Positions 43,645-59,467 of a DNA stretch of 64,000 nt are shown one piece after another. The notes beneath the pieces were generated by a model. It had not been told where the DNA came from. It did no database searches and saw only the letters and a list, made by a program, of their open reading frames with translations. Made by a program: the position numbers and the translations under genes. Source of the DNA: an uncultured Syntrophaceae bacterium (GTDB lineage Bacteria > Desulfobacterota > Syntrophia > Syntrophales > UBA2185); the NCBI GenBank assembly GCA_964564625.1, contig CAZMBE010000006.1, positions 42,998-106,997 on the forward strand, written 5' to 3'. Position 1 is the stretch's first letter, and each line of letters opens with the position of its first letter.

Positions 43645-43797
43645 GAGGTCCTCCTGTGCAAGCGAATGTAGAGAGCAAAGCAGACGGGAAGGAAAGGGCA
43701 GTATCTATATTACTCCAAAGGGATAAGAGAGTAATACAGAAAGACCTCATTGATGAAAAGAAATGAAAATAAATTCTTTAGAAGAAAGGAGTTCAAC

Positions 43798-44988
43798 ATG
43801 AAATTACATATTAAAAACAACGTATCATGGGTCGGCAAGATCGATTGGGAACTCAGAAAATTTCACGGGGATGAATATTCAACACACCGTGGATCAACCT
43901 ATAATTCATACCTGATCGAGGAAGAAAAGGTTGTTGTGATTGACACAGTATGGGCTCCCTTTGCCAAGGAGTATGTTGCAAAGCTTGAAAAGATTATCGA
44001 CTTGAAGAAAATCGACTATGTCATCGCAAACCACGCGGAAATAGATCATAGCGGCTCCTTGCCGGAGCTCATGAGCCGCATTCCCGATACACCGATATAT
44101 TGTACCGCAAATGGTGTAAAATCCCTGAAAGGGCACTACCACCAGGACTGGAATTTTCAACAGGTTAAAACAGGGGATCGTTTGAGTCTTGGGAAAAAAG
44201 AATTGATATTTATAGAGGCGCCAATGCTTCACTGGCCCGACACCATGTTTTGTTATCTGACTGGCGATAATATTTTGTTCAGTAACGATGCCTTCGGCCA
44301 GCACTACGCGACGGAATTCATGTTCAATGATCTCGTCGACCAGGCGGAATTGATGGCGGAATGCGTAAAGTACTACGCGAATATCCTGACGCCGTTCAGT
44401 CAGTTGGTCGACAAAAAAATCAAGGAGGTTTTATCATTCAAACTGCCCGTTGATGTTATCTGTACAAGCCATGGAGTCATCTGGCGGGATAATCCGGTTC
44501 AAATTGTTGAGCAGTATGTGAAATGGGCGAACAGCTATAAGGAAAACCAGATTACCATCGCATACGACAGCATGTGGAACGGGACCCGTGTCATGGCGGA
44601 GAATATTGCTCACGGGATTAAACAATCCGATGAGAAAGTAAATGTGAAACTGTACAATATCGCAAAAGCGGATAAGAACGATGTGATCACGGAGATATTT
44701 AAATCCAAAGCCATTCTTGTCGGTTCGCCGACCATCAACAGGGGCATTCTGACGGGTGTCGCCAGCGTTCTCGAAGAAATAAAGGGATTGAGATTCCAAG
44801 ACAAAAAAGCGGCTGCCTTCGGCTGTTACGGATGGAGCGGAGAATCCGTAAAGATCATTTCACAGGACCTCGCAGCCGCGGGTTTCCAGGTCGTTAATGA
44901 GGGGATCAGGGCTATGTGGAACCCGGATGCCAAGAGCATTGAAGAGTGTATTGAATATGGCAGGAAGGCAGCCGAACTTTTTAACTAA
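43798..44988 (+). CDS. fprA: A-type flavoprotein (FprA / flavodiiron protein: metallo-beta-lactamase plus flavodoxin domains)
   Basis: Start at MKLHIKNNVSWVG (ATG at 43798, AAGGAG RBS). Di-iron ligand motif NHAEIDHSG. C-terminal flavodoxin module (ILVGSPTINRG, FGCYGWSGE). Confidence 0.9.
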   Translation: MKLHIKNNVSWVGKIDWELRKFHGDEYSTHRGSTYNSYLIEEEKVVVIDTVWAPFAKEYVAKLEKIIDLKKIDYVIANHAEIDHSGSLPELMSRIPDTPIYCTANGVKSLKGHYHQDWNFQQVKTGDRLSLGKKELIFIEAPMLHWPDTMFCYLTGDNILFSNDAFGQHYATEFMFNDLVDQAELMAECVKYYANILTPFSQLVDKKIKEVLSFKLPVDVICTSHGVIWRDNPVQIVEQYVKWANSYKENQITIAYDSMWNGTRVMAENIAHGIKQSDEKVNVKLYNIAKADKNDVITEIFKSKAILVGSPTINRGILTGVASVLEEIKGLRFQDKKAAAFGCYGWSGESVKIISQDLAAAGFQVVNEGIRAMWNPDAKSIEECIEYGRKAAELFN

Positions 44989-45188: not shown

Positions 45189-45605
45189 ATGGCAAGACCG
45201 AGGAATTGCAGGAGAGTGGCGTGTCTCCCCGAAAGCCGGTATTTCAAGCCAAGAGGAATCCCTCTTTCCGCTCTTGAGGAGATAAATTTAACGATTGATG
45301 AATTCGAAGCTATTCGTTTAGCCGATCTCGAGGGCCTGTACCAGGAGCAGGCTGCGGAAAGAATGAACATCTCCCGGCAGACATTCGGAAGGATTATCGG
45401 TTCCGCGCATAGAAAGTTGGCGGAGGTATTGGTTGCAGGAAAAGCGCTAAAGATAGAAGGAGGTGATTTTGAGGTAGACGAGGTGAGAAAATTTACATGC
45501 TACGACTGTCAACATTCATGGGAACTTCCTCATGGGACAGGCAGGCCTGGGAACTGCCCTTCCTGTCAGAGTGTAACGATACATAGAGCGGAAGAAAACA
45601 GATGA
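45189..45605 (+). CDS. DUF134 (UPF0251) family predicted DNA-binding protein with C-terminal zinc ribbon
   Basis: 138 aa. MARPRNCRRV...YFKPRGIP...LTIDEFEAIRLADLEGLYQEQAAERMNISRQTFGRI is the DUF134 signature. The C-terminus has CYDC...CPSC. Confidence 0.8.
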   Translation: MARPRNCRRVACLPESRYFKPRGIPLSALEEINLTIDEFEAIRLADLEGLYQEQAAERMNISRQTFGRIIGSAHRKLAEVLVAGKALKIEGGDFEVDEVRKFTCYDCQHSWELPHGTGRPGNCPSCQSVTIHRAEENR

Positions 45606-45713
45606 TGTGCTATTGATGGACGCAGAGGCACAAGGCAGGGCTTCGGGTGTCGCGGAATGCGGCAAAAATAACGTCAAAGAAAATACTATTTTATTTGAAA
45701 TGGAGATTGAATT

Positions 45714-46085
45714 GTGAAGGTATGTTTTCCAGTTTATAAAGATGAAGGCGTCAACAGTACTGTATATGATCATTTTGGTTCCTCGCCAGAATTTATCATT
45801 GTTAATACGGAACTCCAGACTGTGATCACTATTGATAACAACGATCTTGACCATGTCCATGGGGCGTGCAATCCCGTAATGGCCGTGGGAGGAAATAAGA
45901 TTGACGCGGTTGTTGTCGGTGGGATCGGCGCGGGGGCTCTGATGAAACTCAATGCGGACGGGATTAAAGTATATAAAGCAGTCAAAGAGACAGTAAAAGA
46001 AAACCTGGATCTTCTGAAAGACAACAGACTTCCCGAACTGGCTTTGCGTCAGACATGCGGAGGTCATCAGGGATGCTGCCATTAA
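45714..46085 (+). CDS. NifB/NifX-type (dinitrogenase Fe-Mo cofactor-binding fold) domain protein
   Basis: 123 aa with a GTG start. HFGSSPEFIIV...VVGGIGAGALMKLNADGIKVY pattern. Confidence 0.75.
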   Translation: MKVCFPVYKDEGVNSTVYDHFGSSPEFIIVNTELQTVITIDNNDLDHVHGACNPVMAVGGNKIDAVVVGGIGAGALMKLNADGIKVYKAVKETVKENLDLLKDNRLPELALRQTCGGHQGCCH

Positions 46086-46099
46086 AGGAGAATAAAAAA

Positions 46100-46978
46100 A
46101 TGGATTGTGAACAACACAATAAAGGGAAAAACCATGGTTGTCAGGGGCAGCACAAGGATCCTGATAGAAAATTGAAGGACTTTACCGAGGATTTCACTCT
46201 GGTAAATCGTCTGGCCAAGATCGATCACAAGATTATGGTCCTCTCCGGGAAGGGCGGAGTCGGCAAGAGTACCGTGGCGGTGAATATTGCCGTCGCACTG
46301 GCCCTTGCGGGGAAACAGGTGGGAATTCTGGATGTCGACTTTCATGGCCCTAGCATACCTACCCTGCTGAAGCTCAACGGGAACCCAGTGAAAGCGGGCG
46401 ATGACGGTATTGAACCCGTGGATTTTGTGGAAGGCATTAAAGTAATGTCCATAGGATTTTTCATGCCGGAGCAGGACAGGGCAGTGATCTGGAGAGGCCC
46501 CATGAAGATCAGCGTCATAAAACAGCTTTTGGCGGAGGTAAGCTGGGGTCATCTGGATTACCTTGTGATTGACTTTCCCCCAGGTACCGGGGATGAACCC
46601 CTTTCCGTGGCTCAACTGATTCCTGACGCCGATGGCGCCGTTATTGTAACCACCCCCCAGGATCTATCCCTTGTCGACGTGCGAAAATCGATTGACTTCT
46701 GCAAACAGCTGAAACTTCCTGTTTTGGGAGTGATAGAAAACATGAGCGGCCTCGTCTGCCCTCATTGCAGTCAGGTGATTGATGTTTTCAAACGAGGAGG
46801 CGGAGAAAAAATGGCCGGCGAGATGGGTGTACCATTTTTGGGCCGTATTCCTATAGAACCATTGATTGTGGAGGCCTCTGACAATGGGAAGCCTTTCCTC
46901 TATCATTATGGGAAAACGCCGGCCGCCGAGGCTTTTGCCGGAGCCATTAAACCGATCCTGGGAATGGTTGCCAAATAG
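46100..46978 (+). CDS. Mrp/NBP35 (ApbC) family Fe-S cluster carrier ATPase
   Basis: Start at MDCEQHNK (ATG at 46100, AAAGGAG RBS). Deviant Walker A SGKGGVGKST, DFPPGTGD and the CPHC motif. Confidence 0.88.
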   Translation: MDCEQHNKGKNHGCQGQHKDPDRKLKDFTEDFTLVNRLAKIDHKIMVLSGKGGVGKSTVAVNIAVALALAGKQVGILDVDFHGPSIPTLLKLNGNPVKAGDDGIEPVDFVEGIKVMSIGFFMPEQDRAVIWRGPMKISVIKQLLAEVSWGHLDYLVIDFPPGTGDEPLSVAQLIPDADGAVIVTTPQDLSLVDVRKSIDFCKQLKLPVLGVIENMSGLVCPHCSQVIDVFKRGGGEKMAGEMGVPFLGRIPIEPLIVEASDNGKPFLYHYGKTPAAEAFAGAIKPILGMVAK

Positions 46979-47263: not shown

Positions 47264-47839
47264 ATGTCACAGGTAAAAGGCCTTCTGCGGCAAGTTGATG
47301 AGGCGGAATCAGAAACCTTAAAACGTATCTCCACAGCATGGAGAAACAACGCTTTCGACGACATGAACCTCCTGCGCACCTTTGCCCTGCGGCAGGGCGT
47401 GCTGGACATCTTTCTTGGTTTCATGCGCTACATCTACTCCAAGTCCACTGTGGAGCCGGAACTTATCGAAATGGCCCGCATCAAGTCGGCCTGGCTCGCC
47501 GGGTGCCGCCACTGAGGAACAGTTCGGTCTGCTTCGGTGAAGCAGATGGGATTGAGCGAAGACAAGGTTGAGAAGATCCGCGATTACAAGAATTCCGACC
47601 TGTCCGAACGTGAGAAAGCTGCTCTCCGGCTGACTGAAATTATCGCTTCGGAGCCCCACACTCTTGATGATGCATTCTTCGCTGAATTGAAGAAACACTT
47701 CAGCGATGAGCAGCTCCTTGACCTGGGAGTAGCCGTGGGGCTGCTGAACGGGCTGCATCGATTTCTAGAGACCTTCGGCGTTCTTCCTGACAGCTACGAT
47801 GAAGGCGCTTCATGTGAAGTGCCACAGCGAGGAAAATGA
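47264..47839 (+). CDS. AhpD-like / carboxymuconolactone decarboxylase family protein, probable selenoprotein (in-frame TGA at 47513-47515 read as Sec)
   Basis: Track ORFs 47264-47515 and 47537-47839 share one frame, separated by a single TGA. Read through, the sequence is E-x11-C-R-H-U, the AhpD E-x11-CxxC motif with Sec in place of the second Cys. A hairpin lies 15 nt downstream. RBS is GAAGGAGG. Confidence 0.7.
47527..47547 (+). promoter_or_regulatory. Candidate bacterial SECIS hairpin
   Basis: CTGCTTC-ggt-GAAGCAG (47529-47545) can be extended by T-A and G-T pairs. GGU is in the apical loop. It begins about 15 nt after the UGA. Confidence 0.55.
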
Positions 47840-50220: not shown

Positions 50221-50394
50221 AAATATTCTGTAACGCCTCTTTCCATGAAGTAATTCCCTGTCAAGCATTCACATTATTATCAAAAATATCAATGCCATTA
50301 TTGTTGTTGTGTCTTTCATTGACGCACAAGGCTAATGTGCGCTATTATTACTCGCAGAAAAAACTAAGAAAATACTACGAGAAAGGAGGTACCT

Positions 50395-50919
50395 ATGGAA
50401 CAAGAAGAAAGAAAAGGCTGGAACCCATATATTGCCGGTGCCCTGACCGGGCTTTTGCTCGTATTTTCTGTCTGGTTTACCGGTAAGTATGTAGGGGCTT
50501 CAACGACATTTGTCCGATCAGCAGGCTACATCGAGAGGTTCTTTAGTGCGGACAGGGTAGCCAAGATGGCGTACTTCCAAAAGGAAGTCCCGAAGATCGA
50601 CTGGCAGTTTCTCTTTGTCATAGGCATCTTCATCGGCGCCCTCATTTCCTCGACAACATCCCAATCCTTCCGTTGGCAAGCCGTACCTACCCGCTGGGAA
50701 GGTCGTTTTGGACCGTCTGTTCCAAAACGCGCCCTCGCCGCCTTTATCGGTGGCGCCGTGGCCATGTTCGGAGCCCGTCTCGCCGATGGTTGACCGAGCG
50801 GACATGGGCTGAGCGGTTCGCTTCAGTTAGCTGTCAGCGGGTATATTTCTCTGATCTGTTTCTTTGTCGGCGGGATTATTGTCGCTCGCCTTCTTTACCG
50901 GGGAGGGATCAAGCCATGA
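50395..50919 (+). CDS. YeeE/YedE-family sulfur-compound transporter, first half-protein, probable selenoprotein (in-frame TGA at 50791-50793 read as Sec)
   Basis: Reading through the TGA gives FGARLADG-U-PSGHGLSG...LLYRGGIKP, ending at TGA 50917-50919, which overlaps the next ATG. The family motif is G-C-(T/P)-S-G-H-G, so Sec replaces the conserved Cys. A hairpin lies 17 nt downstream. RBS is AAAGGAGG. Confidence 0.65.
50808..50827 (+). promoter_or_regulatory. Candidate bacterial SECIS hairpin
   Basis: GCTGAGCG-gtt-CGCT(T)CAGT forms an 8-bp stem with one bulged U and GGUU at the apex. Confidence 0.45.
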
Positions 50920-51443
50920 ACGAACTTATCTATGGATTCATTACCGGGATCATTTTCGGTTTTCTCCTTCAGAAAGGGCGGGTAATCCGTTATGATAAGC
51001 AGATTGGCGCCCTGCTCCTGAAGGACATGACGATTGTCAAATTCATGCTGTCCACGATTCTTGTAGCCATGGTGGGGGTCTATTTGCTCGTCGATCTGGG
51101 TCTGGCGAAACTCTCCCTGAAGGCCACGATCTTCGGGGGAAATATAGTCGGCGGTTTGATTTTCGGCTTCGGGTGGGGGATTCTCGGCTATTGCCCCGGC
51201 ACCCAGATGGGCGGTCTCGGTGAGGGAAGATGGGACACTCTCTGGGGAATCATCGGCATGCTTGTCGGAGCAGCGCTCTTTGCCGAGATGTATCCCACTT
51301 TGAAGGCTACTGTCCTGATGTGGGGAGATTTCGGCAGGATTACGATCCCACAGATCCTCGGCATTAATCACTGGCCGGTCATCGGGGTCATGGTTGTGCT
51401 TGGAGTAATTTTAATGCGGTGGTTCGAGAAAAAAGGTTTGTGA
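50916..51443 (+). CDS. YeeE/YedE-family transporter, second half-protein
   Basis: Start at MNELIYGFITGIIFGFLLQKG (ATG at 50916, ATGA overlap). GWGILGYCPGT motif. The track's 50673 start is an out-of-context extension across the upstream gene. Confidence 0.8.
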   Translation: MNELIYGFITGIIFGFLLQKGRVIRYDKQIGALLLKDMTIVKFMLSTILVAMVGVYLLVDLGLAKLSLKATIFGGNIVGGLIFGFGWGILGYCPGTQMGGLGEGRWDTLWGIIGMLVGAALFAEMYPTLKATVLMWGDFGRITIPQILGINHWPVIGVMVVLGVILMRWFEKKGL

Positions 51444-51508
51444 TGTAAAATGGTTACGTAATGGTATTTCTTTGAAATAATCATATAAGATACTACCAAG
51501 AGGTAAAT

Positions 51509-51754
51509 ATGTCTGACCAAATCATATCGGCCCGTGAAATATCTGATCTGCTCAAATATGATAAAAGAAATGTTCTAGATGAATTAATTTCCAGTGCCCG
51601 TAAAACTATTTTAGCAGGTTATAAAGTTATTATTCGTGAAACATATCAGAACGCACCCCCTCAAGACTTAAAGACGTTTACAACCGTAGGAGAAATTGAT
51701 GCGTGGGTAGAGGATATTGATTTACTTGATGATATAAATGCAATAAAAAGATAA
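51509..51754 (+). CDS. Hypothetical small acidic protein (81 aa)
   Basis: ORF with RBS AGAGG in an AT-rich stretch. No motif recognised. Confidence 0.4.
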   Translation: MSDQIISAREISDLLKYDKRNVLDELISSARKTILAGYKVIIRETYQNAPPQDLKTFTTVGEIDAWVEDIDLLDDINAIKR

Positions 51755-53641: not shown

Positions 53642-54817
53642 TTACATATTCTTGATGCTCGATATTTTTCTGAGTTGGGTGGTAATTTCAATCAGAGTTT
53701 CTATTACGTAATCAATCTCTTCACCTGTATTGTCCTTTCCGAGGGAGAACCGTATCGTGCCCTGGGCTGTGAGGGCAGGTATACCCATCGCAAGGAGGAC
53801 ATGAGAAGGTTCCGGGGACTCCGTAGAGCAGGCAGAGCCCGAAGAGGCGCAAATCCCCTTCAAATCCAAATGGAGGAGAATAGATTCCCCTTCAATGAAT
53901 TGAAAACTCATACTGCTCGTATTGGGAACCCGTGGAGCCTGTATCCCGTTTATCTGGACACCGTCGATTTTTTCCAGGATGACGGACTCAAAGCGCTGCC
54001 TGAGGTCCGATATCCTTTGCGATGAAGCATTCAGGTTTTGTGTGGCTATGGAAAGCGCCTCCGCCAAGCCGACAATCCCGGGAATATTTTCCGTCCCCGC
54101 CCGAAGGTTGAGTTCATGATGTCCGCCTGTCTGAATCGGCGCGATCGGCGTGCCTTTTCTCACGTAAAGGGCGCCGATGCCCTTGGGGCCATGGAATTTG
54201 TGTCCTGAAACGGAAAGAAGATCAACACAGAGATCATCGACGTGAACAGGTATTTTACCGGTGGCCTGAACGGCGTCAGTGTGAAAAATAATTCCCTCAC
54301 GCTTGGCGAGGGTGCCCACTTCGGAGATCGGTTGGATAACGCCTGTTTCATTATTGGCGGCCATGATGCTGATGAGAATCGTTTTCCTGTCAATACGCCT
54401 GCGCACATCATCGGGATTGATCCGGCCGTTCGAATCCACAGGGAGGCAGGTTACACGGAATCCTTCTTTTTCCAGATCCCCGCATGTTCTCAGTACCGCG
54501 TGATGTTCAATACGGGAGGTGATGATGTGGTTGCCCTTTTCCCTCAGTGCGCGCGCCATGCCCCGTATGGCAAGATTGTCCGACTCTGTTCCCCCGCCGG
54601 TAAAAATGATTTCGTCAGCGGTTGCCCCTAAGCATGCGGCAACCTTTTCTCGGGAGTTTTCCAGGGCGGTCTTTGCTTCTCTCCCCAGCCGGTACGGACT
54701 TGAGGCGTTTCCATACTGTTCCCTCAGGTAAGGTTCCATAGCCTGGAAGACATCGGGATGGAGTGATGTCGTGGCATTGTGATCCAAGTATATCATGGCA
54801 GTCTTTTTGTTCCTCAA
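53642..54817 (-). CDS. nifS: Cysteine desulfurase (NifS/IscS class I)
   Basis: 391 aa. PLP-Lys motif SGHKFHGPKG and catalytic loop SSGSACS. Its start overlaps the stop of the upstream scaffold gene. Confidence 0.92.
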   Translation of the reverse strand: MRNKKTAMIYLDHNATTSLHPDVFQAMEPYLREQYGNASSPYRLGREAKTALENSREKVAACLGATADEIIFTGGGTESDNLAIRGMARALREKGNHIITSRIEHHAVLRTCGDLEKEGFRVTCLPVDSNGRINPDDVRRRIDRKTILISIMAANNETGVIQPISEVGTLAKREGIIFHTDAVQATGKIPVHVDDLCVDLLSVSGHKFHGPKGIGALYVRKGTPIAPIQTGGHHELNLRAGTENIPGIVGLAEALSIATQNLNASSQRISDLRQRFESVILEKIDGVQINGIQAPRVPNTSSMSFQFIEGESILLHLDLKGICASSGSACSTESPEPSHVLLAMGIPALTAQGTIRFSLGKDNTGEEIDYVIETLIEITTQLRKISSIKNM

Positions 54818-55281
54818 TCAGGTCTTCGTGATACCCGCTTCTTTTCATAGTCATCAATCGCGGCTAAAAGTGCGTTAATCCCCATGAGGGAGCAATGCCG
54901 TTTATTTTCGGGAATGCCCCCCAGGGCGAGAACCACGTCGTCGTCCGTGAGATTTTTTGCGTCCGCGATTGTTTTTCCCAACGCCAGCGTGGTGGCCATG
55001 CTGCTTGTCGCGATGGCGCCGGGACAGCCGAAGGACTGGAATTTGATATCGGAGATTCGATTCTCTTTCACCTTAATCCAGAGTTTCATCTGGTCACCAC
55101 AGGAAGGGTCGCCAATCAGGGCATAGCCGTCCGCGTCGGATATTTCCCCCACATTCCGGGGGTTTGTAAAGTGATCTATGATAATCTCGGTATAAAAAAG
55201 CACAGGGCCTTTGTGCGCTTGCGGTTCTTCTTCCGGTTGCTTTTTGTATAGATCTCTCCAGTCATTTGATTTCTTAACCAT
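54814..55281 (-). CDS. NifU/IscU-type Fe-S cluster scaffold (N-terminal domain type)
   Basis: 155 aa. Three ligand Cys in GDPSCGD, FGCPGAIA and KRHCS. Confidence 0.88.
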   Translation of the reverse strand: MVKKSNDWRDLYKKQPEEEPQAHKGPVLFYTEIIIDHFTNPRNVGEISDADGYALIGDPSCGDQMKLWIKVKENRISDIKFQSFGCPGAIATSSMATTLALGKTIADAKNLTDDDVVLALGGIPENKRHCSLMGINALLAAIDDYEKKRVSRRPD

Positions 55282-56140: not shown

Positions 56141-56237
56141 CATGGCCAGAGTGTAACGTAACATACTTACTTTGCTTGGTTATTTACGAAATATCCCCCA
56201 CGAGTGACCAGTGTATAGAGATGTGGGGAAGAAAAAT

Positions 56238-58076
56238 ATGGATAATAAGTATCCAATTGTGGTATCCAATTGTCTAAAAAGTATCCAGGCACCTATGAAG
56301 AACACAGAACACAGAAGCAGGAAAAAATTCTGGGCTGGCATTTCACCCTGGTTTATCATTGGGGCGGTCGTTATTTTAGTGCCTATCTTCATTATGATGG
56401 CCCTGGAGAATATTGGCAAACAAAAGGACTACACTACTCAGCTTCTGATCGAAAAAGGAGAAGCCCTCATCAGGTCGTTTGAGGCAGGTGCGCGAACGGG
56501 TATCGGAATGCGCTGGAGCAGCTTTCAGCTCCAGAAACTATTGATTGAAACGGCGGAGCAGGAGGGTGTAGACCACATAATACTCACGGGTACCGACGGC
56601 ACGATCATCGCCGACAGCGACCCCTCGATGATAGGTGAGAGGTACGGTGTGGATCTTGAGCTTGTTCGTATATCCGGATTGAAGAAAGCAGAATGGCGCC
56701 AGGTCCCCAACCTTGAAGGCGCCGACACATTTGAAGTATACCGCCGGTTTGCTCCGACAGAGACATTCGCTCAGGAATTTTTCCGTATGCTGAAGTCTGA
56801 GCGCAGATCCTCTGAATCAGGTACTCCGGGTACAGGCATTCAATCACCCGGTTTGGTCATATTTGTGGGCATGGATATGGGGCCCATTGACGCATTGAGA
56901 AAACAGGACAGGGAACATACGATCTGGATGTCCGTCATTTTTGTTTTGATAGGGATATCGGGCATAATCTCCCTGATCCTCGCCCAGAGTTACCGCTCAG
57001 CAAAGATATCTCTATCACGCATAAAGGCCTTCTCGGACAGCCTGGTGGAAAACATGCCGATTGGCCTCATTGCCATTAACGATCGGGATGAAATCATTTC
57101 CCTTAACCAGACCGCGGAATCCGTGTTCGGATACTCCATCCGGGACATTTCCGGCAGAAAGGCCGGGGATATTCTGCCTGAGCCCTGTAAAACGCTTCTT
57201 GAATCCCTCAAAACCGAAAAAAAAGTGATCGAAAAGGAGATAGAGTGCCCGGTAAAAGATGGGACGATCGTTCCCCTGGAAGTAATAGCGACAGTGTTGG
57301 AAGAGGGTACGGGTGATTTTCTTGGGTATGTGATTCTGTTCAGGGATATTACAGAGATCCTTCACCTCAAAAAAGAGATGGAAAGGAGCCGGCGCCTCGC
57401 GTCCCTCGGAAGCCTTGCCGCCGGTGTGGCCCATGAAATAAGGAATCCGCTGAGTTCCATTAAAGGCTTCGCTACTTTTTTCAAGGAGAGGTATCACAAC
57501 AATCCGGAAGATCGCAAGACCGCTGAAATCATGGTACAGGAAGTGGAACGCCTGAACCGGGTCATCAGTCAACTTCTCGAGTTCGCGAGACCGATTGATA
57601 TGAACAGGCGTTGGAATTCCATTCAGGAAATAATCCGGCATACACTGAAGATGATCGAAGGCGAGGCAGGAGAGAAGAAGATTTCACTCCATGCAGATAT
57701 CCCCGCCAAGCCAGGAAATATTTTCATCGATGCGGATAAAATCACGCAGGTGATGCTGAACCTCTACCTGAACGCGATCAGCGCAATGGAGAGCGGGGGT
57801 ACCCTCGGCGTGGCCCTTTCCCTGTCTGGCGACCGGATGGTACAGATTGATGTGTCCGATACGGGAGCGGGAATTGATGAGGAGGATCTGCTCCGTATCT
57901 TCGATCCGTACTTCACGACGAAACCCTCGGGGACGGGGCTTGGCCTCGCCATCGTTTACAGGATCATTGAAGCCCATGGCGGGGAGATCAGGGTAGAGAG
58001 CGAACGGGGAAAGGGAACAAAGGTAACCGTTCTTCTTCCGGTCGGTCCGGCCACTGCGGTTTCAAATCAAACGTAA
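56238..58076 (+). CDS. Sensor histidine kinase (two TM helices flanking a periplasmic domain, then PAS, HisKA and HATPase_c); ZraS/HydH-like
   Basis: H-box HEIRNPLSSI. N, G1 and G2 boxes (LNLYLNAI, DTGAGI, GTGLGLAIV). The start is uncertain: GTG 56211, ATG 56238 or ATG 56295. Confidence 0.85.
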   Translation: MDNKYPIVVSNCLKSIQAPMKNTEHRSRKKFWAGISPWFIIGAVVILVPIFIMMALENIGKQKDYTTQLLIEKGEALIRSFEAGARTGIGMRWSSFQLQKLLIETAEQEGVDHIILTGTDGTIIADSDPSMIGERYGVDLELVRISGLKKAEWRQVPNLEGADTFEVYRRFAPTETFAQEFFRMLKSERRSSESGTPGTGIQSPGLVIFVGMDMGPIDALRKQDREHTIWMSVIFVLIGISGIISLILAQSYRSAKISLSRIKAFSDSLVENMPIGLIAINDRDEIISLNQTAESVFGYSIRDISGRKAGDILPEPCKTLLESLKTEKKVIEKEIECPVKDGTIVPLEVIATVLEEGTGDFLGYVILFRDITEILHLKKEMERSRRLASLGSLAAGVAHEIRNPLSSIKGFATFFKERYHNNPEDRKTAEIMVQEVERLNRVISQLLEFARPIDMNRRWNSIQEIIRHTLKMIEGEAGEKKISLHADIPAKPGNIFIDADKITQVMLNLYLNAISAMESGGTLGVALSLSGDRMVQIDVSDTGAGIDEEDLLRIFDPYFTTKPSGTGLGLAIVYRIIEAHGGEIRVESERGKGTKVTVLLPVGPATAVSNQT

Positions 58077-58102
58077 TCGCGTGAAGGAGTAACATACTGC
58101 CC

Positions 58103-59467
58103 ATGAAAGAAAAAAATACCATCCTGGTGGCGGATGATGACCTTGCCCATCGTACCATGCTGCGGACGCTTCTCGGCGGCTGGGGATATGAGGTCGCTGA
58201 AGCCGATGACGGCCAGAGCGCCGTAGAGGCTGTTCACAAAAGACCCTTCGACCTGATTCTCATGGATATCCGTATGATCAGGGTTTCCGGGCTGGAGGCC
58301 CTGGTGGAGATCAAGCGTTTCAATCCCGCCATTCCTGTGGTCATCATGACGGCCTATGCGTCGGTAGAAACGGCGGTGAAGGCGCTGAAAGAAGGAGCCT
58401 ACGACTACCTCACCAAACCTCTCGACTTCGACGAACTGAAGATCATCATGGAACGGGCAATGGAGCATAGGCGTCTGCAGGAGGAAAACCGCTATCTCCG
58501 GGAGAGCCTTGCCTCGCAGTTCGATCGGCGGAACCTCATCGGGCAGAGCGGTCCCATGACGAGGCTGATGGAAACCGTTACCCAGGTTGCGCCTTCTGAA
58601 GCAACCGTATTGATAACCGGTGAATCCGGAACGGGAAAGGAAATGATCGCGGGTGCCATCCACTTCAACAGCCGGCGGAAGGATGGTCCCTTTGTGAAGA
58701 TAAACTGTGCCGCTATTACAGAGACGCTCCTGGAGTCGGAACTTTTCGGTCATGAGAAGGGAGCTTTTACCGGCGCTGAAAGGCGCAAAGAGGGGAAATT
58801 CCGGCAGGCTGACAGGGGGAGCATCTTCCTGGACGAAGTAAGTGAAATGTCTCTTGCCATGCAGGTCAAACTCTTAAGGGTGCTCCAGGAGAGGGAGATC
58901 GTGAGGGTCGGCGGCGAGGAAGTGATCAAGATTGACGTGCGGGTTATTGCCGCGACCAACAAGGAACTGGTCCGTGAGATCCATGCGGGCCGTTTCCGGG
59001 AAGACCTTTATTACCGTCTCAACGTGGTGACTCTCCATGTGCCTCCTCTCAGGGAGCGGAGGGAAGACATACCTCTCATCGCCCAGCACTTTTTAACTCT
59101 CTTTGCGGAAAAGAATCACAAAAATATCAAAGGATTTACTCCCCGGGCCATGGATCGGTTGCTGAAATACAGCTGGCCGGGAAATGTGCGGGAACTCATG
59201 AACGCTGTTGAACGGGGTGTGGTGCTTTCACGGTCGGAGTACCTGGACGAAGAAGAATTTTCTCTCATACTCCAGGATCAGCCGCGGTCGATAGAAACGC
59301 CGGCTCCACAAGCCACAACTTCAGCCCCTTCCCTTGATGCAGTTGAGAAGGAAACGATCCTGAGGGCTTTGGAAACATCGGGAGGGAATAAGAGCGAAGC
59401 CGCGAGGCGTCTCGGCATCACCCGACGTACCCTGCACCTCAAGCTGAAAAAATACGGTATGATGTGA
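58103..59467 (+). CDS. Sigma-54-dependent response regulator (REC, AAA+ and Fis-type HTH domains), NtrC/ZraR family
   Basis: 454 aa. Receiver Asp (LILMDIRM), GESGTGKE Walker A, GAFTGA sigma-54 contact loop and a C-terminal HTH (AARRLGITRRTL). Confidence 0.93.
   Translation: MKEKNTILVADDDLAHRTMLRTLLGGWGYEVAEADDGQSAVEAVHKRPFDLILMDIRMIRVSGLEALVEIKRFNPAIPVVIMTAYASVETAVKALKEGAYDYLTKPLDFDELKIIMERAMEHRRLQEENRYLRESLASQFDRRNLIGQSGPMTRLMETVTQVAPSEATVLITGESGTGKEMIAGAIHFNSRRKDGPFVKINCAAITETLLESELFGHEKGAFTGAERRKEGKFRQADRGSIFLDEVSEMSLAMQVKLLRVLQEREIVRVGGEEVIKIDVRVIAATNKELVREIHAGRFREDLYYRLNVVTLHVPPLRERREDIPLIAQHFLTLFAEKNHKNIKGFTPRAMDRLLKYSWPGNVRELMNAVERGVVLSRSEYLDEEEFSLILQDQPRSIETPAPQATTSAPSLDAVEKETILRALETSGGNKSEAARRLGITRRTLHLKLKKYGMM

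Follow-up and report, generated by a model that had tools for sequence, protein, structure and literature searches.

Does a TGA codon that falls in frame inside a conserved motif of a membrane transporter gene terminate translation or does it specify selenocysteine (Sec)? This question is raised by a gene pair in a 64-kb stretch of DNA from an uncultured Syntrophaceae bacterium (contig CAZMBE010000006.1), hereafter referred to as the window; related loci from other assemblies are numbered L001 etc. and protein homologues P0001 etc. An earlier note on this stretch had described the pair as a YeeE/YedE-type transporter encoded as two half-proteins, the first with UGA in place of a pore cysteine. 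The analysis reported here favors the reading, with a probability of roughly 85%, that a translationally coupled operon encodes a split YeeE/YedE heterodimer of the PmpA/PmpB (= YedE1/YedE2) type, in which the product of gene 1 contains Sec. Judged from sequence comparison, the UGA at 50791-50793 almost certainly inserts Sec at the position of a conserved substrate-contacting cysteine. Four independent lines of such evidence support Sec decoding: the alignment of the UGA with a Cys, the alternation of codons at this position, the conservation of the sequence that follows and a hairpin resembling a selenocysteine insertion sequence (SECIS).

In gene 1 the UGA is read directly in the context ...FGARLADG-TGA-PSGHGLSG. 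On re-reading, the coordinates of the 132-amino-acid (aa) open reading frame (ORF) that ends inside the motif agree with those first reported, the same frame remains open for exactly 41 further codons up to the terminal TGA, and the latter overlaps the ATG of gene 2 as ATGA (Table 1). The 41 codons after the UGA encode the peptide PSGHGLSGSLQLAVSGYISLICFFVGGIIVARLLYRGGIKP. This extension contains no in-frame ATG, GTG or TTG and consequently cannot be translated on its own. A longer ORF covering gene 2 (50673-51443, 256 aa, TTG start) was rejected as an upstream frame-extension artefact; the orthologous gene 2 products have 175 aa and start at the ATGA.

Homologues of gene 1 were searched among 5.8 billion proteins. 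Every one of the closest full-length relatives, which have 171-177 aa and reach 85% identity, carries RLADG-C-PSGHG, so that the motif cysteine stands at the UGA as had been predicted. A second population consists of '132-aa' proteins, 86-91% identical, whose calls are truncated at the same TGA. A one-genome-per-species scan returned 80 loci, 78 of them covering the motif. At this position 55 loci have TGA, 17 have TGC and 6 have TGT, in every case inside the motif G-[U/C]-[P/T]-SGHG, and the orthologues that were to be checked for TGA or TGC therefore divide into 55 and 23 (TGC or TGT). Loci with TGA occur in Syntrophales, Syntrophorhabdus, Desulfobacterales, Nitrospirota/Thermodesulfovibrionales, Dissulfurispiraceae and Acidobacteriota, among them L014 of the cultured Syntrophorhabdus aromaticivorans UI. 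Syntrophaceae/Syntrophales metagenome-assembled genomes (84-87% identity) come closest to the window. On these sequence data, the occurrence of the same TGA at the same invariant position in 55 independent species-level genomes is far beyond chance.

On the rival view that the TGA really ends translation, gene 1 would encode a truncated product of 132 aa or have become a pseudogene, with the following 41 codons forming an untranslated spacer before gene 2. Gene callers do annotate 132-aa products in many assemblies (e.g. P0029, P0043, P0071), and TGA is the ordinary terminator of both genes here. Such a stop would nevertheless have to fall exactly on an invariant Cys in 55 species, and the supposed spacer keeps its frame, its length and its amino-acid sequence. 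The extension measures 36-42 codons in the 51 intact loci with TGA at the motif (Sec-type loci), 41 or 42 in 45 of them. Across these loci its codons differ from those of the window by 741 synonymous versus 476 non-synonymous changes, and synonymous changes equal or outnumber the others in 49 of the 51. Independent metagenome contigs with 132-aa calls show the same 122-nucleotide (nt) 'gap' before gene 2 in unrelated genomic contexts. The 'spacer' moreover encodes the remaining invariant PSGHG and the last helix, has no start codon of its own, and its loss would leave a protein devoid of the essential residue. Termination at this codon as the normal fate of gene 1 is therefore very improbable, and Sec decoding is the preferred reading.

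The final terminator of gene 1 is also TGA in 51/51 Sec-type loci, mostly as ATGA or TGAATG at the gene 2 junction. In the window, one codon would thus mean both Sec and stop, 41 codons apart, in a single gene. In two related assemblies (L006:6397-7100 and L012:443-1040) the extension or junction is interrupted by a frameshift or a stretch of N, and the genes look fused or out of frame; these irregularities stem from assembly and have no biological meaning.

The mRNA hairpin that follows the UGA was found as first described, with a bulged U and a GGUU apex. Its stem pairs CUGAGCG with CGCUUCAG and is completed by a G.U closing pair; the first paired base lies 17 nt after the U of UGA and the apex GGU at +25-27. 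Folding of the single sequence being weak, it is the comparative evidence that bears the weight. When 50 distinct Sec-type sequences are aligned, 89% of the cells at paired positions are paired, versus 26-41% after sliding the 3' partners by 1-3 columns. The closing pair (18-37), which links the wobble base of a Gly codon with the first base of a Leu/Ile/Val codon, occurs as five pair types (AU 20, GC 15, CG 6, UA 4, GU 2), and rarer double changes are seen at two further pairs. A subclade encoding GLAQ, not GSLQ, possesses a different, bulge-free stem with a GGUCUG loop, the distance of the GGU being unchanged. The complete hairpin is present in 47/52 Sec loci versus 1/23 Cys loci, and GGU stands at the apex in 48/52 versus 2/23. 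The mean local folding energy is -10.7 kcal/mol for Sec loci versus -4.8 kcal/mol for Cys loci, a difference to which GC content may contribute. In the Cys forms of Desulfovibrio an identical peptide, GLSGSLQL, is specified by non-pairing codons. The SECIS check suggested at the outset thus yields a hairpin that is conserved, covaries, accompanies TGA and is essentially absent with Cys codons. An Rfam scan of 50300-51500 at E <= 1 gave no match.

The sole Cys-type (TGC) locus with a complete hairpin and a GGU apex belongs to Syntrophorhabdus sp. PtaU1.Bin058 (L018:6001-6516), a pattern that points to a recent exchange of one residue for the other.

A second probable selenoprotein gene, AhpD/CMD-like and not part of the transporter, is located 3.3 kb upstream of the pair. 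Its Pfam match to CMD is weak (20.2 bits versus a cut-off of 23), and CxxU proteins of the CMD/AhpD-like kind have an established place among listed selenoproteins. The hairpin of this gene (about 47520-47554) folds at -21.2 kcal/mol (z = -4.61, 0/200 shuffles as good) and presents its apex GGU at +24-26 from the U of UGA, versus +25-27 in gene 1; the similarity of spacing noticed earlier was thus recovered. The presence of this gene is indirect support for the Sec competence of the organism.

These data also bear on the possibility that the UGA is read through without Sec, either by a near-cognate Trp or Cys tRNA or in a reassigned code. The Sec machinery was not seen in the window, as such a mechanism would allow. 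Nonetheless, TGA terminates gene 1, gene 2 and the extensions of 51/51 Sec-type loci, from which the genetic code can be taken as standard. The residue aligned with the UGA is always Cys, never Trp or Gly; the covarying GGU-apex hairpin goes with TGA and not with Cys codons; and a nearby AhpD-like CxxU gene has the same layout. Read-through of this kind is hardly credible in view of these observations, and insertion of Sec is retained.

The two genes were assigned to their family with a Cys substituted for the gene 1 stop in Pfam scoring. Gene 1 matches PF04143 (Sulf_transp, cut-off 27 bits) with 91 bits over profile positions 173-310 of 310. Gene 2 also exceeds the cut-off (53.9 bits, profile positions 15-150) and passes DUF6691 in addition (31.1 bits). 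The coverage of opposite profile halves indicates that each gene represents half of a YeeE/YedE transporter, the C-terminal-half-like gene coming first. Residues 68-168 of gene 1 align with residues 238-328 of StYeeE, the YeeE protein of S. thermophila (6LEO, 8J4C), and the UGA falls on Cys293 (AGGC293NIGH). The 41-codon extension aligns with StYeeE residues 294-328, i.e. the LD loop and the last helices, as the earlier note had proposed to verify. Residues 7-121 of gene 2 align with StYeeE 5-117, Cys93 (GYC93PGT) falling on Cys91; the description of the transporter as two half-proteins is thereby borne out by both Pfam and the StYeeE alignments. The position equivalent to Cys22 is Ile in gene 2, as expected for split members (PMC11582611). 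The codon of Cys93 is TGC or TGT in 42/42 Sec-type loci matched by motif search, and direct reading showed GYCPATG in 2 of the 12 loci missed by this search. The gene 1/gene 2 pair is kept in all loci examined. In a profile search against the PDB the alignment of gene 1 stops short of the N-terminal 60 residues, and no equivalence of R41 with StYeeE R215 is claimed.

The pair scores 36-54 bits with the NCBIfam models of TsuA (NF041049, NF052577; cut-offs 400 and 645) and 33-36 bits with those of YedE/FdhT (NF033796, TIGR04112; cut-offs 350 and 200). By these profile scores (33-54 bits versus cut-offs of 200-645) it belongs to neither the TsuA nor the selenium-linked YedE/FdhT equivalogs. The link between YedE and selenium mentioned in the first description holds for relatives (PMC5322559) but does not extend to this pair as an equivalog.

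Several observations weigh against the proposed reading. The isolated 25-nt hairpin folds at -8.9 kcal/mol with z = -2.27 (6/200 shuffles as good), which is only marginal for a single sequence, and folding it within longer contexts gives no significant result (45 nt, z = 0.17; 60 nt, z = -1.04). Neither selA, selB, selD nor tRNA-Sec was found in the 64-kb window, where ten large ORFs that were checked are unrelated to Sel proteins, so that the case for Sec competence of the source genome is indirect. tRNA-Sec scans of the window and of 32 related loci found none, the window scan giving only a tRNA-Leu. Two ORFs that resemble SelB and SelA in size (56211-58076 and 58103-59467) are actually a ZraS/ZraR-type two-component pair. 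No sulfur-enzyme or TusA/YeeD-type neighbor of the pair occurs in the window. The literature searched contains no protein-level evidence of Sec insertion for any family member. The AlphaFold2 model of the closest Cys homologue, P0001, built from a 39-sequence alignment, is of low confidence (predicted local distance difference test, pLDDT, 56.7; predicted template modelling score, pTM, 0.32). Its helices are ordered 11-29, 35-49, 70-88 and 109-129, followed by a loop at 130-139 and then 140-168; given this low confidence, residue 133 is placed by sequence alignment alone. Lastly, PmpA/PmpB and YedE1/YedE2 measure about 130 aa versus 174-175 aa here, and they are likened to the pair through published descriptions, not by direct sequence comparison.

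How such a pair could work can be considered in the light of its characterized relatives. Cys293 of StYeeE lies in the periplasmic indentation and contacts bound thiosulfate at position I; the substitutions C293A and C91A abolish complementation and C22A does not (PMC7449682). The essential character attributed to the motif Cys in the earlier note is thus confirmed for StYeeE, with the refinement that the Cys293 equivalent is the residue replaced and that the Cys91 equivalent stays a cysteine (Cys93) in gene 2. The split YedE1/YedE2 of Cupriavidus imports zero-valent sulfur/polysulfide, requires both subunits and loses activity if either conserved Cys is changed to Ser (PMC10812762). Dahl and colleagues likened PmpA to the C-terminal half with the Cys293 equivalent and PmpB to the N-terminal half with the Cys91 equivalent, and proposed a PmpA/PmpB heterodimer (PMC11582611).

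On the favored reading, genes 1 and 2 are translationally coupled in one operon and encode the two transporter halves. The comparisons strongly support that the hairpin directs Sec insertion at the UGA, yielding a 174-residue product (about 18 kDa) whose last helix is encoded 3' of the UGA. Sec133 takes the position of StYeeE Cys293, which lines the periplasm-facing indentation where thiosulfate binds, and gene 2 Cys93 supplies the next relay residue; in StYeeE the two corresponding cysteines are separated by about 7 A. By analogy, the heterodimer would import sulfur species, most likely sulfane/zero-valent sulfur or polysulfide and possibly thiosulfate, with a hand-over from the outer capture site at Sec133 to the inner Cys93; sulfane sulfur or thiosulfate is what we infer as the substrate of the pair. 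A selenolate at the entry site would be a stronger nucleophile and a better leaving group than a thiol. Under selenium limitation, termination at the UGA would produce a 132-residue protein without the motif and the last helix, presumably inactive.

Sulfur as the substrate is also suggested by the genes that surround the pair in related loci. A CoA-disulfide-reductase (CoADR)-like flavoprotein lies directly downstream of the pair in 13 related loci, 12 of which are of the Sec type. This protein (476 aa, active-site motif SYGSCSLPYY) reaches 444 bits with TIGR03385, below the equivalog cut-off of 579 bits. In L027 a CoADR/NADH-oxidase-like ORF starts about 129 nt after the pair; the window has no such gene. 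In 11 Cys-type loci the upstream neighbor is a fusion of a metallo-beta-lactamase (MBL)-fold and a rhodanese domain, and 6 related loci encode a protein of 266 aa that is TtcA-like by reading of its SGGKDS motif only. Rhodanese, an HmcB/HybA-like Fe-S protein and cytochrome b are encoded upstream in L001. All these neighbors echo the published contexts of YedE1E2.

This recurrence matters for the proposal that Sec is correctly assigned and that the pair moves selenium instead, for example as selenite or selenide for selenophosphate synthesis, like its YedE/FdhT relatives. Members of the YedE type are found together with selenium-utilisation genes, and in Methanococcus such a YedE-like protein has been implicated in selenium transport (PMC5322559; cited in PMC11582611). 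The genes also give weak NCBIfam matches to selen_YedE_FdhT and seleno_YedE, and the organism would itself use Sec. On the other hand, the latter matches amount to 33-36 bits where cut-offs are 200-350, and higher scores are obtained with the TsuA models; the recurrent neighbors are sulfur enzymes (CoADR-like, rhodanese, MBL-rhodanese) and not selD, selA or yedF; and close Cys-type orthologues are widespread. Selenium transport is consequently unlikely, and import of a sulfur species by the Sec-containing heterodimer remains the reading preferred here.

A selenol is largely deprotonated at physiological pH, which makes it a poor hydrogen-bond donor and an excellent nucleophile. Together with the widespread Sec/Cys exchange at the C293 equivalent, this chemistry argues that the residue does chemistry and does not only form the hydrogen bonds proposed for YeeE. 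As a tentative and rather doubtful extension, Sec at this position may mark a distinct subclass in which covalent transport replaces the S-H-S hydrogen-bond relay of YeeE. The selenolate would react with polysulfide or thiosulfate to form an Se-S intermediate resolved towards the partner Cys93, and in syntrophic anaerobes the imported sulfur would then be passed to a CoADR-type persulfide/polysulfide reductase of the cytoplasm. If this were true, the Sec/Cys alternation would be the first evidence of nucleophilic pore cysteines in the YeeE/YedE family.

In the window itself, the flanks of the pair tell little about its function: upstream lie genes of cytochrome c biogenesis (ResB/CcsA) and downstream an 81-aa ORF, a CitMHS-type permease and NifS/NifU. 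Having neither a cysteine nor a family match, the 81-aa ORF is not a YeeD/TusA-type partner. The region upstream of the pair in L001 (L001:1-1478) encodes the same three families as window positions 45189-46978, with the DUF134 and Nitro_FeMo-Co proteins fused and the genes on the opposite strand, which indicates partial synteny. The coordinates of all features are collected in Table 1.

Table 1. Features of the half-transporter gene pair and of its surroundings, in window coordinates.
Feature	Position	Strand	Remarks
Promoter-like site TTGACG-18 nt-TATTAT	50319-50348	+	10/12 matches, consensus match only; 47 nt 5' of gene 1 start
Shine-Dalgarno AGGAGG of gene 1	50384-50389	+	Direct reading
ATG start codon of gene 1	50395	+	Direct reading
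Gene 1, PmpA/YedE1-type half-transporter (C-terminal-half-like)	50395-50919	+	174 residues including predicted Sec133, plus terminal TGA
In-frame UGA, predicted to be read as Sec (U133)	50791-50793	+	Equivalent to StYeeE Cys293 and E. coli YeeE Cys302
Post-UGA extension, 41 codons	50794-50916	+	Remainder of LD-loop motif PSGHG and last transmembrane helix
SECIS-like mRNA hairpin	50808-50827	+	8 pairs, bulged U 50822, apex GGUU 50815-50818
Shine-Dalgarno-like GGAGGG of gene 2	50902-50907	+	Within gene 1 extension; direct reading
Terminal TGA of gene 1	50917-50919	+	Overlaps gene 2 ATG (50916-50918) as ATGA
Gene 2, PmpB/YedE2-type half-transporter (N-terminal-half-like)	50916-51443	+	175 aa
TGC codon of gene 2 Cys93, motif GYCPGT	51192-51194	+	Equivalent to StYeeE Cys91
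81-aa ORF	51509-51754	+	65 nt 3' of gene 2; no Pfam/NCBIfam match, no cysteine
Second probable selenoprotein gene, AhpD/CMD-like	47264-47839	+	Motif C-R-H-U, TGA 47513-47515; not part of the transporter
DUF134 protein, Nitro_FeMo-Co (NifX/NifB-like) protein, ParA/NUBPL-type P-loop ATPase	45189-46978		3-5 kb upstream of the pair
Flavorubredoxin-type nitric oxide reductase	43750-44988		Window context
NifS/NifU	53642-55281	-	Window context
ZraS/ZraR-like sensor kinase and sigma-54 response regulator	56211-59467		Window context

The earlier note had called a Sec-for-Cys substitution in a transporter motif unusual, which overstated its novelty since Sec-containing YeeE/YedE proteins with the motif GUxSG are already present in published selenoprotein inventories (PMC13188914, PMC9312934). 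A 2026 review lists the family among predicted Sec-containing transporter subunits, and the reviews credit the family to Zhang & Gladyshev 2008 and Peng et al. 2016 (PMC9312934, PMC13188914); in the main text of the two cited primary papers (the Global Ocean Sampling (GOS) paper and Peng 2016) its name does not appear. The literature searched holds no experimental work on Sec-containing YeeE/YedE members. Gene 1 falls in the same Pfam family, its D-G-U-P-S-G fits GUxSG, and the same NCBI product name is given to its 174-aa Cys orthologues, e.g. P0050 of Pelobacter propionicus. No difference from the catalogued family is demonstrable; its representative WP_012471001.1 may be a half-size PmpA-type protein or a full-length YeeE. 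This accession is cited in the two reviews only and was absent from a homologue search seeded with the Pelobacter orthologue. The published entries are devoid of SECIS, structural mapping or function. Integral-membrane-transporter selenoproteins are rare, and the interest of the present one would lie mainly in what a selenolate at the point of substrate entry would imply for the mechanism. A practical consequence concerns annotation, since in many assemblies these genes are called as products of only 132 aa.

Compared with full-length YeeE/TsuA (S. thermophila 6LEO/8J4C and E. coli YeeE, which works with YeeD/TsuB), the pair belongs to the same fold family and has both central motifs with a Cys position. 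The single gene is here split in two with swapped order, the C-terminal-half-like gene coming first, and the central helix H7 and Cys22 are missing. In contrast with the YeeD/TsuB partnership, no YeeD/TusA-like gene adjoins the pair in the window. YedE/FdhT (NF033796, TIGR04112) belongs to the same superfamily and is linked to selenium biology; it is however a Cys protein tied to selenium use and not a selenoprotein, and the scores of the pair are far below its cut-offs. Among the closest known systems are PmpA/PmpB of Serratia and the equivalent YedE1/YedE2 of Cupriavidus pinatubonensis and Sinorhizobium meliloti. They likewise consist of two adjacent half-size genes, one of the C293 type and one of the C91 type; each subunit has a single conserved residue at a Cys position, and C22 has no counterpart. 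They also share with the related loci their sulfur-enzyme neighbors (rhodanese, MBL-fold/PDO-like and, by motif only, a TtcA-like ORF). They differ in having Cys where the PmpA-type subunit described here would have Sec and in occurring in aerobic Proteobacteria, whereas this clade is found in anaerobic Syntrophales and other Desulfobacterota. With the Sec family catalogued and the split architecture published, the finding is correct but already known as a kind. The additions to these known systems are modest: Sec is mapped to the Cys293/PmpA-type position, the SECIS is seen to covary, the breadth of the TGA/Cys alternation is documented and an association with a CoADR-like gene is noted.

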